A stretch of 32,000 nucleotides of DNA, from contig NC_001264.1 of NCBI RefSeq assembly GCF_000008565.1, forward strand, positions 157,418 through 189,417, written 5' to 3'. Below the pieces are notes generated by a model. That model did not search any database. It had not been told where the DNA came from and saw nothing but the letters and a program-made list of their open reading frames with translations. Shown piece by piece: positions 6,978-12,994 of the stretch. Position numbers and translations under genes: made by a program. This DNA comes from Deinococcus radiodurans R1 = ATCC 13939 = DSM 20539 (GTDB lineage: Bacteria > Deinococcota > Deinococci > Deinococcales > Deinococcaceae). The first letter of the stretch is position 1. Every line of letters starts with the position of its first letter.

Positions 6978-6998
6978 GGTTATGCTATTTACATAACC
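6978..6998. promoter_or_regulatory. Perfect palindrome GGTTATG-N7-CATAACC. Candidate repressor operator that resembles the Deinococcus RDRM (DdrO site) as I recall it.
   Basis: Read directly: ggttatgctatttacataacc, with 7-bp arms that are exact reverse complements. It lies in an AT-rich patch 62 nt upstream of the ATG at 7060 and overlaps the predicted -35. Confidence 0.5.
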
Positions 6999-7016
6999 AC
7001 TCCTCGCGTGTAGACT
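6988..7016 (+). promoter_or_regulatory. Sigma-70-like promoter for the 7060-12994 operon
   Basis: TTTACA (6988-6993), a 17-nt spacer, then TAGACT (7011-7016). GAGG Shine-Dalgarno is at 7051-7054, before the ATG at 7060. Confidence 0.4.
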
Positions 7017-7059
7017 CAAAGGTGAAAACCACCACCTTCTCTGTTGCCCCGAGGTTCCC

Positions 7060-7464
7060 ATGCTGGTTGAAACCAAGATTGTAGGCCGCCGCACGCCGTT
7101 CGAGCGCAAACCCTTCGACCTGCCCGCTGGGCCGCACACCCTGCGGAGCCTGCTTACCCACCTCGTCGCCGGGGAAGTCGCCGCCTATGAAGAGCGGCAG
7201 GGCAGCGTCGGCGTGCTGCGGGTACTGACCGAGCAGGAACTTTTGAGTGGCGCCGCCGCCGGCAAAATCCAACTGGCACCGCAGGAGCGGGGCGGCGTGG
7301 TCACGCCTGAGGAGGCGACCCGCACCGCCCTGCGCGCCTTTGAAGACGGGCTGTACTACGTCTTCGTGGACGACGAGCAGGTGGAAACGCTTGACGAAAC
7401 CGTTGCCCTACAGCCCGACAGCACCCTGTTGCTGCTGCGCCTGACCGCGCTGGCGGGGGGCTGA
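7060..7464 (+). CDS. Hypothetical 134-aa protein with ubiquitin-like (beta-grasp-like) N- and C-terminal segments, ending ...LRLTALAGG-stop
   Basis: Third codon positions are G/C-rich and a Shine-Dalgarno is present. The stop lies 2 nt before the next ATG. The C-terminus YVFVDDEQVETLDETVALQPDSTLLLLRLTALAGG compares with the ubiquitin tail [34 protein letters not shown]. The N-terminus MLVETKIVGRRT compares with MQIFVKTLTGKT. Confidence 0.7.
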   Translation: MLVETKIVGRRTPFERKPFDLPAGPHTLRSLLTHLVAGEVAAYEERQGSVGVLRVLTEQELLSGAAAGKIQLAPQERGGVVTPEEATRTALRAFEDGLYYVFVDDEQVETLDETVALQPDSTLLLLRLTALAGG

Positions 7465-10400: not shown

Positions 10401-12347
10401 TACAGCGGCCACAGTCTGGGCAAGGACGCGACCTTCAGTCACCTGCTGCGGGTGTCGTTTCCTGACCCCGGCGACACCGCCCAGACTGTGCGCGAGCAGG
10501 CGAAAACCCTGGGGCTGAGCGACCCCCGGCTGCTTGACCTCGCCATGTTCGCGCCGCAGTGGGCCGAGCTCGTCAGCGGCGCGGTGGGCTGGAAGGGGCT
10601 GGCGGACGGCGTGTACTGGCTGCACGCCCACACCCGCGACTCTCAGTGGAGCGTGCCGACGGACATCCGCGAGGCCTGGGAAGCCGAAATCAGCGAGCGC
10701 ACGCCGCTGCGCCCCACCGACCTCACCGAGGGTGCCGTGGACGTGGCGTGGTTCCGGCGGATGCACCGCGCCCTGGGCCGCGCGCACTTTCAGACCTTGC
10801 TCGGCGCGGCCAAATATGCGTCGTCCAGTGGCGGGCACAAACGCGCCGAACTGTTCGCCGCGGCCATTCTGGGCGAGGTGCCGGAAGACACCCTGCTCGC
10901 CCGCATCCGCGAAAAACGCAACCAGGACGCGGTGCGGGCGCTGGGGCTGCTGCCGCTGCCGAAGGGCAAAAAGGCCGCGCAGGTGCTGGAGGCGCGTTAC
11001 CTCACCCTCGTCACCTTTCGCCGCGAGACCCGGCAGTTCGGCGCGCAGCGGCAGGCCAGCGAGCGCCTCGCCGCCGACATCGGCCTACAAAACCTCGCCC
11101 GCAGCGCCGGATACGCCGACCCCCAGCGCCTGATGTGGGCAATGGAAGCGCGCATGGCCCCCGACTGGCAGCAGGTGGTGACCGCCGATGGGGTGACCGT
11201 GAGCGCCGAACTCGATGGGGCGGGCGCAGCGACCCTGCTCGTCCGGCGCGGCGAGAAGCCCCTCAAGACCCTGCCGCCCGCACTCAGAAAAAACCCCGAG
11301 GTGCTCGCGCTGCGTGAGGCCGTCAAAGACCTCGCCGCCACCCGCACCCGCATGCGCGCGGCCCTCGAAGAAGCGATGGTGCGCGGCGACCACTTCACCC
11401 CCCAGGAACTCCGCGACCTCGCGCGGCACCCGATCATCGCCCCGATGCTCGGGAGTCTGGTGTGGGTGCTCGGCGAAGGGCCGCTGGGCTTCTGGGAAGA
11501 CGAAAGCCTGCGGACGCTGACCGGAGAACTCCCGCTGGGCGACCAGGCCCTACGCCTCGCACACCCGCACGACCTTTTTACTGGCGGGCAGTGGCGCGAG
11601 TATCAGGCGGCAGTGCTTAAGCGCCAGCTCACCCAGCCCTTCAAGCAGGTCTTCCGCGAGTATTACCCGCTCACCGCCGCCGAAAAAACCGCCCAGCGCA
11701 GCGTCCGCTACGAGGGCCACCACGTTCAGCCTGTCAAGGCCGCCGCACTCCTCAAGGCGCGGGGCTGGGTCAGCATTTACGACGAAGGCACCCGCAAGAC
11801 CTTCCACGACGAGGGCCTCAGTGTCTGGATTGACGATGCGCTTAGCGCCGGCACCCCGAACGAGGTGGAAGGCCTGCCGCTGCACGCCGCCTATTTCATG
11901 CGGGTGGGCGAGGCGCAGCCCCTGCCACTGGCCGCCGTTCCGCCCCGGCTGTTCAGCCAGGTCTTGCGCGACCTCGACCTCGTGGTGAGTGTGGCCCACG
12001 TGGGCGGCGTGGACCCCGAAGCCTCGCAGAGCACGGTGGAAATGCGCGAAAGCCTGCTGCGCGAGACTCTGCGCCTGCTGAAGCTGAAAAACGTGCGCCT
12101 CGAACACGGACACGCCCTGATCGACGGTCACCACAGCCGCTACAGCGTGCACCTCGGCAGCGGCACCGTTCACCGCCAGCCGGGGGGCTTCCTGTGCATC
12201 GTGCCGGTTCACAACCAGGCGCAGGGCCGCCTCTTTCTTCCCTTCGCCGACCCCGACCCGCGTACGGCGGAGGTGGTAAGCAAGGTGCTGCTGCTCGCCG
12301 AAGACCGCAAGATTCAGGACCCGACGATTCTGGAACAGTTGCGCTGA
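7467..12347 (+). CDS. Giant (1626 aa) alpha-helical repeat protein. The C-terminal ~600 aa resemble the DUF4132 / MolR-YehI family. Function unknown.
   Basis: Uninterrupted 4.9-kb ORF with strong G/C third-position bias. HEAT-like repeats occur (e.g. LLTDPDPARRMAAAQFL). The C-terminal motifs APQWAELV, TPLRPTDLTEGAVDVAWF, GGHKRAEL, NQDAVRALGLLPL, RQFGAQRQASE, QPFKQVFREYY, LRDLDLVVSVAH and YSVHLGSG match my memory of DUF4132-family proteins. No search was possible. Confidence 0.85.
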   Translation: MAGGLDLTEYFRQYEQPWQPDFAARLAAAPESVQGWVQARLTEGKTWPAMQEQARVWSEALLSASPEELRALTGVLFPQFPELAARAYRTVLETRPYTRGLLRRAFRAGAQGNDAERGGAAAGWLWSLWTLLRAYPEGVLWVAEAAGLFEAYESRLLGPLLAQAVSEGDAGVLQLLKDTASTQHPVARMGRHVPQALLGSDDPQAWEYARQLLLAAQRQEGLRQVILETVDEAHPGAFPLFLNTVLDEDLLRFAAVLRAACVWYGLGYDVTDMKKVRQLLTLARGYLEDAAQVTQAVSSGSGEEVYMALYTLGMRDADEAAALARPLLTDPDPARRMAAAQFLSAAHLLQSADLARLLADEDLRLGAVALAPGSYPSGWVTPENTNPLTFDALRAYAERLSRAPRHDPLLFPWLGDVPDRASVTDGLVAVLPPDELGRIVPHLGELSPGGKSFLLARLRALAERRDRGETVRLPDDTRFILLTLLQDRSSATSQEAVTTLTALRLELSGEERTLAHDLLRRKSADLRRGLIRLLAADPAQGAASAAALLALKSTEQRQAGLQLLEEVGGLPPADFQPKNVSEATLLAKLAAPESQLTLNNGLGLFDPQDLSQPQPLRPSDNDFVADVERGAELLRSLDDFLAEHAETPVSGTGWDGETTELLTNLSPYWLSARVGRDMPLAGLWNGWWAARAGAQEGDLTRMAWALGHRVDRTETTETELLQELSEGGDTSPEQEHARLLRQRLIQQTLHAVLGPPVPLKLDRAPLIEPVLDYLSTQELTEVDTGMQLDAWESALSRLPSDTPLLKLGEERWQVEDPRSLLGPLVLQGIELAALPAEQFQQLWRVQLHHHAAFPNLPRLRMSAEMLILAERAGLANRADLLDLLIGERNAGMGDVYYGNSFDDLRSYTRRKLSDLLPTSPAWMQAVNDARDRVLAVELERGDLETPATLPALALQSVSGAARTLRLLAGLGKQPLRRGYSGHSLGKDATFSHLLRVSFPDPGDTAQTVREQAKTLGLSDPRLLDLAMFAPQWAELVSGAVGWKGLADGVYWLHAHTRDSQWSVPTDIREAWEAEISERTPLRPTDLTEGAVDVAWFRRMHRALGRAHFQTLLGAAKYASSSGGHKRAELFAAAILGEVPEDTLLARIREKRNQDAVRALGLLPLPKGKKAAQVLEARYLTLVTFRRETRQFGAQRQASERLAADIGLQNLARSAGYADPQRLMWAMEARMAPDWQQVVTADGVTVSAELDGAGAATLLVRRGEKPLKTLPPALRKNPEVLALREAVKDLAATRTRMRAALEEAMVRGDHFTPQELRDLARHPIIAPMLGSLVWVLGEGPLGFWEDESLRTLTGELPLGDQALRLAHPHDLFTGGQWREYQAAVLKRQLTQPFKQVFREYYPLTAAEKTAQRSVRYEGHHVQPVKAAALLKARGWVSIYDEGTRKTFHDEGLSVWIDDALSAGTPNEVEGLPLHAAYFMRVGEAQPLPLAAVPPRLFSQVLRDLDLVVSVAHVGGVDPEASQSTVEMRESLLRETLRLLKLKNVRLEHGHALIDGHHSRYSVHLGSGTVHRQPGGFLCIVPVHNQAQGRLFLPFADPDPRTAEVVSKVLLLAEDRKIQDPTILEQLR

Positions 12348-12409
12348 GTGGGGGCGTCCGGGGCCTGCGCCATCTCTTTGCCGCCCCAGACGCTAACGTT
12401 GTGCCCCAG

Positions 12410-12994
12410 ATGCCTGTTCCTGTCCCTCGCGCTTACCCCCGCTTGAGCCATGCCATCGGCTTCGACGACGCGCCGTTTGCCCGCGAGTGGCGCGGCGACG
12501 TGCGGATTTTTGGGGCCGTCTACGCCGGGCCGACCCTGCACGCCGTGGTCAGCGGGCGGGTCCGCCGCGACGGGCGCAACGCCACCGACGAACTCAGCCG
12601 GCTGGTCACGGCGCAGGCCGAGCACTTGCAACTGGTGTTCTTGCAGGGTATCGCGCTCGCGGGCTTCAATGTGGTGGACCTCGGCGCCCTGCACGCCCGC
12701 ACGGGCCTGCCGGTGCTGGTGGTGGCCCGCAGGAAACCCCGGCTCGACCGCATTCGCCGCGCCCTGCTCGAAGAAGTACCGGGCGGCGCGCGCAAGTGGC
12801 GCCTCATCGAGCAGGCAGGGGAGATGGAGCCCTGCGCTGGCCTCTACGTCCAGCGGGCGGGCCTGTTGCTGGCAGAGGCGGAAGCCGCGCTCGGCACCTT
12901 TTGCCTTACCGGGCGCATTCCTGAACCTCTACGCACGGCCCACCTGATTGCCGGAGGCGTGACGCGCGGCAGCAGCGCGGGCCAGCGCGTTTAA
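12410..12994 (+). CDS. DUF99/UPF0215-family protein (endonuclease V-like fold; Endo_dU family)
   Basis: ATG at 12410 (MPVPVPRAYPRLSHAIGFDDAPF...). The family-typical motifs GFDD near the N-terminus, DG.NATDEL, GIALAGFNVVD and GLPVLVVARRKP are present. The 12194-12409 extension overlaps the giant gene and is rejected. Confidence 0.8.
   Translation: MPVPVPRAYPRLSHAIGFDDAPFAREWRGDVRIFGAVYAGPTLHAVVSGRVRRDGRNATDELSRLVTAQAEHLQLVFLQGIALAGFNVVDLGALHARTGLPVLVVARRKPRLDRIRRALLEEVPGGARKWRLIEQAGEMEPCAGLYVQRAGLLLAEAEAALGTFCLTGRIPEPLRTAHLIAGGVTRGSSAGQRV

Follow-up and report, generated by a model that had tools for sequence, protein, structure and literature searches.

A Gly-Gly-tailed putative ubiquitin-like protein encoded beside a giant DUF4132 protein under DdrO control in Deinococcus radiodurans

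The 32-kb stretch of DNA analysed here (the window, meaning the whole 32,000 nt; positions given without a locus name refer to it) is part of chromosome II of Deinococcus radiodurans and contains the genes DR_A0164, DR_A0165, DR_A0166 and DR_A0167. Our subject is the pair DR_A0165 and DR_A0166 (genes 1 and 2 in the following), of which the first encodes a credible ubiquitin-like protein (Ubl) ending in Gly-Gly and the second a giant of 1626 amino acids (aa). Repression by DdrO at a dyad over the -35 hexamer and induction by DNA damage are shown by published data and by the conservation of the motif, and in related genomes the two genes are found together almost without exception. We propose, with a probability of about one half, that the functional unit is a two-gene, DNA-damage-inducible operon whose two products act as a pair, the Gly-Gly tail being received by the giant. 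The regulation, and part of what concerns the proteins, has been described before; what appears to be new is a widespread Gly-Gly-tailed Ubl that is locked to a DUF5724-DUF4132-DUF7737 giant, repeatedly placed under damage operators and never accompanied by canonical Ubl enzymes. The block had been read before from its letters and open reading frames (ORFs) only; this sequence-only reading had included DR_A0167 (gene 3) as a third component. The features of the operon are:

6977-6999, no strand: operator, binding site of DdrO, interrupted dyad TGGTTATG-CTATTTA-CATAACCA
6988-7016, plus strand: sigma-70-type promoter TTTACA-17-TAGACT, 9 of 12 consensus matches
7051-7054, plus strand: Shine-Dalgarno sequence GAGG, 5 nt ahead of the gene 1 ATG, its GG invariant in a Deinococcus alignment
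7060-7464, plus strand: gene 1 (DR_A0165), 405 nt, 134 aa, C-terminus ...RLTALAGG
7467-12347, plus strand: gene 2 (DR_A0166), 1626-aa giant, start codon 2 nt past the gene 1 stop

DdrO control of the operon

The operator consists of two arms of 8 nt each, TGGTTATG (6977-6984) and CATAACCA (6992-6999), which flank the non-palindromic 7-nt spacer CTATTTA; what had been described from the sequence as a perfect 21-bp palindrome is in fact an interrupted dyad of 8 + 7 + 8 nt. Its suspected kinship with the radiation/desiccation-response motif (RDRM) was borne out: the 17-bp core TTATGCTATTTACATAA at 6980-6996 has 0 mismatches to the RDRM consensus TTATGYNNTNNRCATAA, this match is the single one in the window (chance expectation, 0.07), and the motif GGTTATGCTATTTACATAAC upstream of gene 1 is letter for letter the published site at -83 of DRA0165. 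The near-consensus promoter said to overlap the dyad was also recovered, with the -35 hexamer TTTACA (6988-6993) falling within the RDRM and the -10 hexamer TAGACT at 7011-7016; between 6400 and 13600 one promoter-like site was found, compared to 0.2 ± 0.5 in shuffled sequences. An RDRM with at most one mismatch lies 54-95 nt before gene 1 in 15 of the 15 Deinococcus loci for which upstream sequence is available. In the alignment of Deinococcus loci a -10 hexamer is conserved about 15 nt after the RDRM and the Shine-Dalgarno sequence is conserved as well; positions T, A and T of the -10 hexamer are invariant among 12 Deinococcus species.

The experimental side of this control has been published. 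Eugenie et al. (2021) established DRA0165, putatively operonic with drA0166, as a DdrO target by chromatin immunoprecipitation sequencing (ChIP-seq), RNA-seq and motif, with a ChIP-seq peak at DRO_A 164001-164701, and their coordinates for DRA0165 lead to the same 405-nt gene 1 (PMC8533742). In their western blots, DRA0166-V5 was induced by mitomycin C in the wild type and not in an irrE deletion strain (PMC8533742). Upon depletion of DdrO, followed at 4, 6, 8, 16 and 24 h relative to 1 h (Table S7 of PMC8533742), DRA0165 changed 1.3-, 3.5-, 5.5-, 3.7- and 7.1-fold and DRA0166 2.5-, 7.3-, 8.1-, 1.4- and 6.6-fold; DRA0167 changed only 1.4-, 2.1-, 1.8-, -1.5- and 3.0-fold (control strain: -1.3, -1.6, -1.9, 1.1 and 1.7). 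In that strain the three genes drifted slightly down until late, and the authors' regulon flags place 0165 and 0166 inside and 0167 outside the regulon (PMC8533742). The thioredoxin gene DR_A0164 and the transporter gene DR_A0163 rose strongly at 16-24 h in control and DdrO-depleted cells alike, up to 12-fold and 16-fold (PMC8533742); this late rise is a growth-phase or heat effect and independent of the RDRM. With the published DdrO/IrrE control (PMC8533742) and the RDRM at 15 of 15 Deinococcus loci, the DNA-damage link that the sequence-only reading had drawn stands. The view that the block was undescribed had to be given up: the pair DR_A0165-DR_A0166 is a published DdrO target (PMC8533742), DR_A0165 has been studied as "SEP068184" (PMC9650054), and DUF99, the family of gene 3, has been characterised as endonuclease dU (PMC11585767).

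The gene pair across phyla

The pairing was surveyed from both genes. From the side of gene 1, one genome per species was scanned, which yielded 66 loci (Deinococcus lineage, 18; Cyanobacteria, 22; Armatimonadota, 10; Actinomycetota, 8; Chloroflexota, 5; Acidobacteriota, Pseudomonadota and unclassified, 1 each). In 62 of the 66, the gene 1 homologue is immediately followed by a gene 2 homologue; as to the other four, one contig ends early, one locus has a TnpB-like fragment and is disrupted by an insertion sequence, and two are decayed remnants. From the side of gene 2, a metagenome scan seeded solely with the C-terminal motifs of the giant yielded 80 loci, 50 of which include the N-terminus of gene 2 plus upstream DNA, and a gene 1 homologue was found upstream in 44 of these 50 by a strict distance rule and in 47 at all. 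In at least seven phyla, genes 1 and 2 are thus paired almost obligately. All-against-all clustering of the ORFs in up to 10 kb of flank at the 66 loci revealed no third conserved neighbour, only sporadic histidine kinases, ABC ATPases and similar proteins, and no E1-like, E2-like, JAB, MoaE or ThiG gene lies next to the pair in these flanks. The sequence-only reading had also considered a conflict-type module, for which nothing was found: PADLOC gave 0 matches for all three proteins and the context is neither mobile nor that of a defence island. Anti-phage defence was rejected on the lack of a PADLOC match. Decay of the module takes several forms, gene 2 being replaced by a TnpB-like fragment (L030 6936-7391), split by a DDE transposase (L067 4212-10025) or reduced to remnants (L042 10457-10549, and L051), and the Ubl gene persists in decayed loci.

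In an exhaustive profile search the gene 1 family proved large: 2,196 cluster representatives passed E<=0.001, of which 957 passed E<=1e-10. Exactly Gly-Gly forms the C-terminus of 225 of the 245 family members that were fetched; nine end in GA and a few carry GG plus one or two residues. G133 and G134 are terminal and invariant in 22 of 22 aligned sequences, with hardly any variation in the final eight residues, RL(T/V)xLAGG. Since the N-terminal 51 residues are conserved too (G9, L28, V36, E39 and R46 are invariant in the alignment) and the Shine-Dalgarno GAGG and the ATG of the 134-aa form are conserved across Deinococcus, we favour this start over the annotated 83-aa form. The latter, which is also the R1 annotation, starts at the GTG of V52 (7213-7464) and loses the conserved first two strands and the helix. 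The AlphaFold2 model of the 134-aa protein (predicted local distance difference test, pLDDT, 75.6; predicted template modelling score 0.65) begins with two strands and a long helix, continues with a helical insertion that is poorly ordered and ends in three strands, and about 40 of the top 50 matches in a Foldseek search of the PDB were MoaD/MOCS2A, ubiquitin, ThiS, Urm1-like or other ubiquitin-like domains. Gene 1 thus credibly encodes a beta-grasp Ubl with a functional-looking Gly-Gly tail, an assignment well supported by fold topology and terminus and unproven by sequence; the ubiquitin fold with a Gly-Gly end had been proposed in the sequence-only reading. A minority of C-termini (GGIF, GGYF, GGYY and GGC, among proteins P0149-P0244) recall Ubl precursors that need C-terminal trimming.

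Three Pfam domains were found in the giant:

7716-11144, plus strand: DUF5724 region, aa 84-1226, Pfam E=4e-179
11256-11768, plus strand: DUF4132 domain, aa 1264-1434, Pfam E=7e-45, 153.6 bits at a cut-off of 27
12036-12341, plus strand: DUF7737 domain, aa 1524-1625, Pfam E=7e-36

When 50 full-length proteins were aligned, 148 positions showed an identity of 95% or more. The DUF5724 region has conserved blocks at aa 200-265 and at aa 1030-1226, the second rich in W and H and containing W.HAHT; the DUF4132 domain has the invariant motifs QPFKQVFRE.Y and RRY.GHQ; and DUF7737, which contains Y.VHLGS, PGG and Q.RGR.FLPF.D.DP.TAE, is preceded by the invariant RDLDLVVSVAH.GGVDPE.S.ST.E.R. The last 400 aa are 50-57% identical between Deinococcus and cyanobacteria, Planctomycetota, Bacteroidota and Gemmatimonadota; about 65 positions in this part are invariant, and many of these are polar. 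AlphaFold models it as a mixed alpha/beta structure (pLDDT 83.7). Of the earlier description of gene 2, the DUF4132 assignment is right, whereas an all-helical protein lacking motifs does not describe these 400 aa with their invariant polar residues. As judged from the alignment, the conservation pattern is that of putative binding or catalytic sites rather than of an inert scaffold. The loops modelled with the lowest confidence are GGVDPEAS (aa 1514-1521, 12006-12029) and Q.RGR.FLPF.D.DP (aa 1580-1594, 12204-12248); such invariant, poorly modelled loops would be expected of segments that become ordered only upon binding of a partner or ligand. Cys1577 in DUF7737 is near-invariant and next to conserved His residues; it was considered as a catalytic thiol and rejected, because several homologues have L, F or P instead.

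Permissive Pfam scans of sub-segments of gene 2 gave no functional assignment, and a literature search found no mention of DUF5724 and DUF7737 and only passing mention of DUF4132. Pfam detects no WGR domain in gene 2 itself; two other DUF5724 proteins (P0275 and P0355) carry one (PF05406). In a metagenome-assembled genome (MAG) of the Pirellulales (L069 3387-8996) the gene 2 homologue is followed downstream by a 414-aa protein and then by an 1869-aa protein with DUF4011, AAA_11/AAA_12 helicase, MTES_1575 and WGR domains. The recurring link to WGR hints at recognition of DNA ends or nicks.

Upstream of the pair, a dyad is also found in cyanobacteria. It reads TAGTWC-N4-GWWC, overlaps a TATAGT-like hexamer and in most cases precedes gene 1 by 40-60 nt. 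Of 21 upstream regions, 13 contain it exactly and 19 with at most one mismatch, and there are only 3 exact matches in the other 344 kb; the motif was derived from the same sequences, so that this enrichment is descriptive and not a formal test. The dyad resembles the published cyanobacterial LexA box AGTACWNWTGTACT, and in Acaryochloris marina the site AGTACATTTGTTTC resembles the box of lexA itself, AGTACAGGTGTTTT. The sequence AATACAAATGTTCT is common to three Anaerolineales loci, and GAACATTAGTTC was seen at one Chloroflexota locus. No convincing LexA-type, RecA-NDp or E. coli-type box was seen upstream of the actinobacterial and armatimonadotal copies. One Anaerolineales MAG (L054) has, besides AATACAAATGTTCT at -77, the RDRM-like sequence TTACGCTAAATACATAA with 1 mismatch at about -178 from the gene 1 homologue; this site could be due to chance or be an XRE/COG2856-type operator outside Deinococcus.

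The endonuclease gene and other neighbours

The pair is flanked by the following features:

6504-6932, plus strand: thioredoxin 2 (DR_A0164) with Zn-ribbon, upstream neighbour outside the module
12410-12994, plus strand: gene 3 (DR_A0167), 194 aa, predicted Endo_dU/DUF99 endonuclease, neighbour outside the conserved module
13017-13185, no strand: repeat of about 170 bp resembling a miniature inverted-repeat transposable element (MITE), bounded by inverted repeats of 20 nt (13017-13036 and 13166-13185)

The three ORFs on one strand, with gaps of 2 nt (gene 1/gene 2) and 62 nt (gene 2/gene 3), were reproduced at the coordinates read before, as was the lack of an obvious terminator: 8 terminator-like matches are no enrichment over the 4.2 ± 2.2 of shuffled sequences, and all lie within coding sequence. 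The repeat element noted past 12994 was likewise found; its terminal inverted repeats are 90% complementary, it sits between gene 3 and the convergent ABC-transporter genes, and it may serve as terminator of the operon. An Rfam scan of 6400-13400 revealed no structured RNA family. The surroundings (5403-6460, 6504-6932 and 13238-14855) have a sulfur/molybdate flavour next to a MoaD-like protein and a "MolR"-family giant: upstream, at 5403-6460, are two half-size YeeE/YedE "Sulf_transp" membrane proteins, and downstream, at 13238-14855, a convergent ABC permease and an SBP_bac_11 binding protein. None of these neighbours is conserved at other loci that carry the pair.

The protein encoded by gene 3 is 100% identical to DR_A0167, annotated "endonuclease dU". 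It matched PF01949 (Endo_dU/DUF99) with E=8e-55 and 185.4 bits at a cut-off of 32.7, and the structure of AfuEndo_dU (2QH9, chain 2qh9_A) with E=1.2e-25, where PEPLRTAHL was aligned to PEPVRISHL; the C-terminal histidine of PEP.R..HL is conserved. The EndoV-related DUF99 nuclease of the sequence-only reading was correctly recognised on both matches. The protein scored below the NCBIfam equivalog cut-offs (NF001977, 140.9 at a cut-off of 235; NF052283, EndoDuHalo, 51 at a cut-off of 200). DUF99 was characterised in 2024 as endonuclease dU, which cleaves 3' of deoxyuridine (dU), shown for archaeal members only, and the bacterial members form one clade (PMC11585767). Gene 3 is a bona fide Endo_dU family member of the bacterial clade and is predicted to be a dU endonuclease. 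At loci with the pair it was found in 0 of 66 genome loci, including 17 other loci of the Deinococcus lineage, and in 0 of 80 metagenome loci. DUF99 genes are frequent in Deinococcus; those of D. taeanensis and D. peraridilitoris are solitary, with unrelated surroundings and no RDRM. Rejected from both sides of the survey (0 of 146 related loci) and by these stand-alone copies, the three genes do not make up one system, and gene 3 is a D. radiodurans-specific neighbour outside the conserved module. Its weak, parallel response to depletion of DdrO suggests some read-through from the operon in D. radiodurans.

Interpretation and comparison with known systems

In undamaged cells the repressor DdrO is bound to the RDRM dyad that overlaps the -35 hexamer, and after damage the protease IrrE cleaves DdrO so that the promoter fires; the published ChIP-seq, RNA-seq and western blots (PMC8533742) and the conservation of the motif show this much. 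The transcript encodes the putative beta-grasp Ubl of 134 aa and then, 2 nt on, the DUF5724-DUF4132-DUF7737 giant. In the mechanism that we propose, the two proteins would work as a stoichiometric pair, since their genes are tightly spaced and nearly obligate partners in both directions in at least seven phyla, the exposed LAGG end is invariant, and there is no other conserved neighbour. The flexible Gly-Gly tail could serve for reaction or docking, with the giant, its dedicated partner, taking it up or processing it, and an E1-like adenylase of the MoeB/ThiF/TtuC type, encoded elsewhere, might activate it, by analogy to MoaD-MoaE, ThiS-ThiG and CysO-CysM. A role in the response to damage or oxidative stress is suggested because the pair lies behind the RDRM in Deinococcus and behind apparently LexA-type boxes in cyanobacteria and some Chloroflexota. 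Going further, we tentatively consider, as a doubtful extension, a widespread and hitherto unrecognised bacterial Ubl system wired into damage regulons (that of DdrO, and that of LexA in cyanobacteria and Chloroflexota), in which the giant would supply a new activating, ligating or tail-receiving activity in place of canonical E1, E2 and JAB enzymes, its targets being damaged chromatin or proteins of the damage response.

Several results weigh against the pair with a tail-receiving giant. A Pfam scan of gene 1 returned no family even at E<=10, NCBIfam and PDB sequence searches with its family returned no match, and no single Foldseek match in the PDB was significant (best E=0.077, template modelling score about 0.5 relative to the target). 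In hhalign comparisons, the gene 1 profile reached E=0.075 with ubiquitin over 12 columns and E=0.23 with MoaD, neither of which is significant; a sequence-level link of gene 1 to ubiquitin or MoaD was rejected on these profile comparisons and the PDB search. For the C-terminal part of gene 2, neither phmmer nor a profile search found a relative in the PDB, and Foldseek with its model gave ZipA (E=0.18) as best match in the PDB, hence no relative, and none in BFVD; because of this, we infer an enzyme from conservation alone. The most conserved loops of this part are also the least confidently modelled ones. A physical interaction of Ubl and giant is something we infer from the genes, and an E1-like gene was linked to the pair nowhere in the flanks. 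LexA-type control in cyanobacteria is apparent by resemblance only, and of the 51 metagenomic loci whose upstream sequence was usable, the majority are without a recognisable damage-type box, a minority having one. Finally, the published DR_A0165 knock-out is more resistant to H2O2, with mild gamma and UV phenotypes (PMC9650054).

This knock-out belongs to another published account of gene 1, in which DR_A0165 is a Deinococcus-specific peptide of 83 aa outside the radiation/desiccation response regulon that lowers antioxidant capacity by binding and inhibiting thioredoxin DR_A0164 (PMC9650054). The peptide, SEP068184, is an ORF identical to residues 52-134 of gene 1 (supplement of PMC9650054), and structure prediction for these residues gave MoaD-type matches including 5MPO and SAMP1 3PO0 (PMC9650054), which agrees with the matches of the model obtained here. 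Recombinant SEP068184 pulls down thioredoxin Trx1 (DR_A0164), and reciprocally; the peptide is about 4-fold up after 8 kGy; and the knock-out gains in H2O2 survival, catalase activity and total antioxidant capacity (PMC9650054). The thioredoxin gene is also directly upstream in the window. However, the 83-aa form lacks the conserved N-terminal 51 residues, Shine-Dalgarno sequence and ATG, a thioredoxin gene adjoins the pair in 0 of 66 related loci compared to 62 with the giant, and the co-immunoprecipitation gave 157 "interactors", which suggests low specificity (PMC9650054). Two claims of the paper, the lack of an RDRM and the restriction of the protein to Deinococcus, are contradicted by the RDRM match, by published DdrO binding and by the cross-phylum family. 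In its supplements, searched for co-immunoprecipitation of DR_A0166 or DR_A0167, these occur solely in a proteome look-up sheet, which is uninformative. We regard thioredoxin inhibition as an improbable function; that the knock-out survives H2O2 better, for which no repair-type model accounts, may be due to an activity that is costly or restrains growth, or to polar effects on the translationally coupled giant. Similar doubt attaches to a role in sulfur or molybdenum cofactor metabolism, in which gene 1 would be a MoaD-like thiocarboxylate carrier. The giant, assigned to the "MolR, molybdate metabolism regulator" family, would use it in making a cofactor or in thio-modification, as needed under stress. 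MoaD/MOCS2A do rank first among the structural matches, the E. coli DUF4132 gene was named molR for a molybdate-utilisation phenotype, and the surroundings include a thioredoxin, membrane proteins of the sulfur-transport type and an ABC transporter of the molybdate/sulfate type; but these neighbours are conserved nowhere else, Pfam detects no MoaE, ThiG or other sulfur-transferase domain in the giant, the molybdenum cofactor genes were not co-regulated upon depletion of DdrO (PMC8533742), and a damage operator is unexpected for cofactor synthesis. Both functions are possible, and the conservation data suit neither of them well.

The main rival is a protein modifier like SAMP, TtuB or Urm1, which housekeeping E1-like enzymes would adenylate and whose Gly-Gly would be attached to target lysines after damage, with the giant as E3-like specificity factor or main substrate. 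The free, invariant Gly-Gly end, the minority of proteins with one or two residues after it, as in ubiquitin precursors, and the C-terminal strand and tail STLLLLRLTALAGG, which resembles that of ubiquitin (not significant), are consistent with such a modifier. SAMPs and TtuB likewise are not known to have an adjacent E1, and the near-invariant Cys1577 beside conserved His residues could be seen in the same light, were it not for several homologues with L, F or P at this position. None of the roughly 110 informative neighbourhoods, however, contains an E1, an E2, a JAB or another deconjugating peptidase; there are no reports of conjugates, and the published co-immunoprecipitation used the truncated construct (PMC9650054). 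We consider a modifier unlikely on this balance, though worth keeping in mind, and the conjugation competence that the sequence-only reading saw in the Ubl stays putative, as E1, E2 and JAB genes are never linked to it. Far less can be said for that reading's three-component stress or conflict system of Ubl, giant and EndoV-fold nuclease. The shared strand, the 62-nt gap with no convincing terminator, the way in which DRA0167 weakly follows the DdrO-depletion time course (PMC8533742) and the fit of a dU endonuclease to the DNA-damage theme speak for it; yet the absence of gene 3 from all 66 genome and 80 metagenome loci with the pair refutes it as a conserved system, and the stand-alone DUF99 genes without RDRM in D. 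taeanensis and D. peraridilitoris and the lack of a PADLOC match point the same way, so that it is highly improbable.

The DdrO regulon is the core of radiation resistance in Deinococcus, and several of its members are still without a function. The pair looks like a conserved, so far unstudied branch of the bacterial DNA-damage response. That one of the unknowns of the regulon is a Gly-Gly-tailed putative Ubl tied to a giant offers a direct experimental handle and a first functional context for DUF5724, DUF4132 and DUF7737, on which there is essentially no literature. The record is corrected in that DR_A0165 was studied as a truncated 83-aa "small peptide", and the endonuclease gene can be left out of the system.

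In MoaD-MoaE, ThiS-ThiG and CysO-CysM, the gene of a Gly-Gly-tailed carrier adjoins that of the enzyme which receives the tail, and the E1-like enzyme can be encoded elsewhere. The pair described here is similar in that a small, credibly beta-grasp protein with a Gly-Gly end, whose best fold matches are MoaD, is encoded beside a dedicated partner. The partner differs, having 1626 aa, three DUFs and no similarity to MoaE, ThiG or CysM. Unlike MoaD and ThiS, gene 1 has a helical insertion of about 50 residues, no ThiS/MoaD Pfam match and control by a damage operator; a thiocarboxylate is predicted only by analogy. SAMP of Haloferax, TtuB of Thermus and Urm1 are MoaD/ThiS-like, stress-responsive modifiers of dual function that end in Gly-Gly and are not known to have an adjacent E1. 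Gene 1 differs from these in being paired with the gene of a giant partner, and its conjugation is putative. Bil/Bub and CBASS Cap2-Cap3 are operons with E1, E2 and JAB enzymes in phage-defence islands; a feature in common with the pair would be a bacterial Ubl with a reactive Gly-Gly, whereas their enzymes and defence context are absent here.

The link to E. coli runs through gene 2. The yehF-yehH(molR)-yehI-yehK-yehLMPQ locus encodes large DUF4132 proteins, and molR is listed among the genes with a known SOS box, under LexA control. The DUF4132 domain of YehI (aa 954-1138, E=2e-47) is 24% identical to gene 2 over the domain. In contrast to gene 2, the E. coli proteins have neither DUF5724 nor DUF7737, their partners are WGR, MoxR, vWA and SWIM proteins, a context that differs from that of gene 2, and no small protein with a Gly-Gly end accompanies them. 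YehK was considered as a hidden Ubl and rejected, since it ends in ...NQEIE and has no Pfam match. With the endonuclease dU family (PMC11585767) only gene 3 is connected, a clear member that belongs to the bacterial clade and is unlinked to the pair outside D. radiodurans. Closest is the entry drA0165-drA0166 of the DdrO/IrrE regulon (PMC8533742). It treats both products as unknowns and mentions only DUF4132; the probable Ubl nature of gene 1, the cross-phylum pairing, the genus-wide RDRM and the status of DRA0167 lie beyond it, and it shares with the present analysis the locus itself, the 17-bp motif, the repressor logic and the induction.

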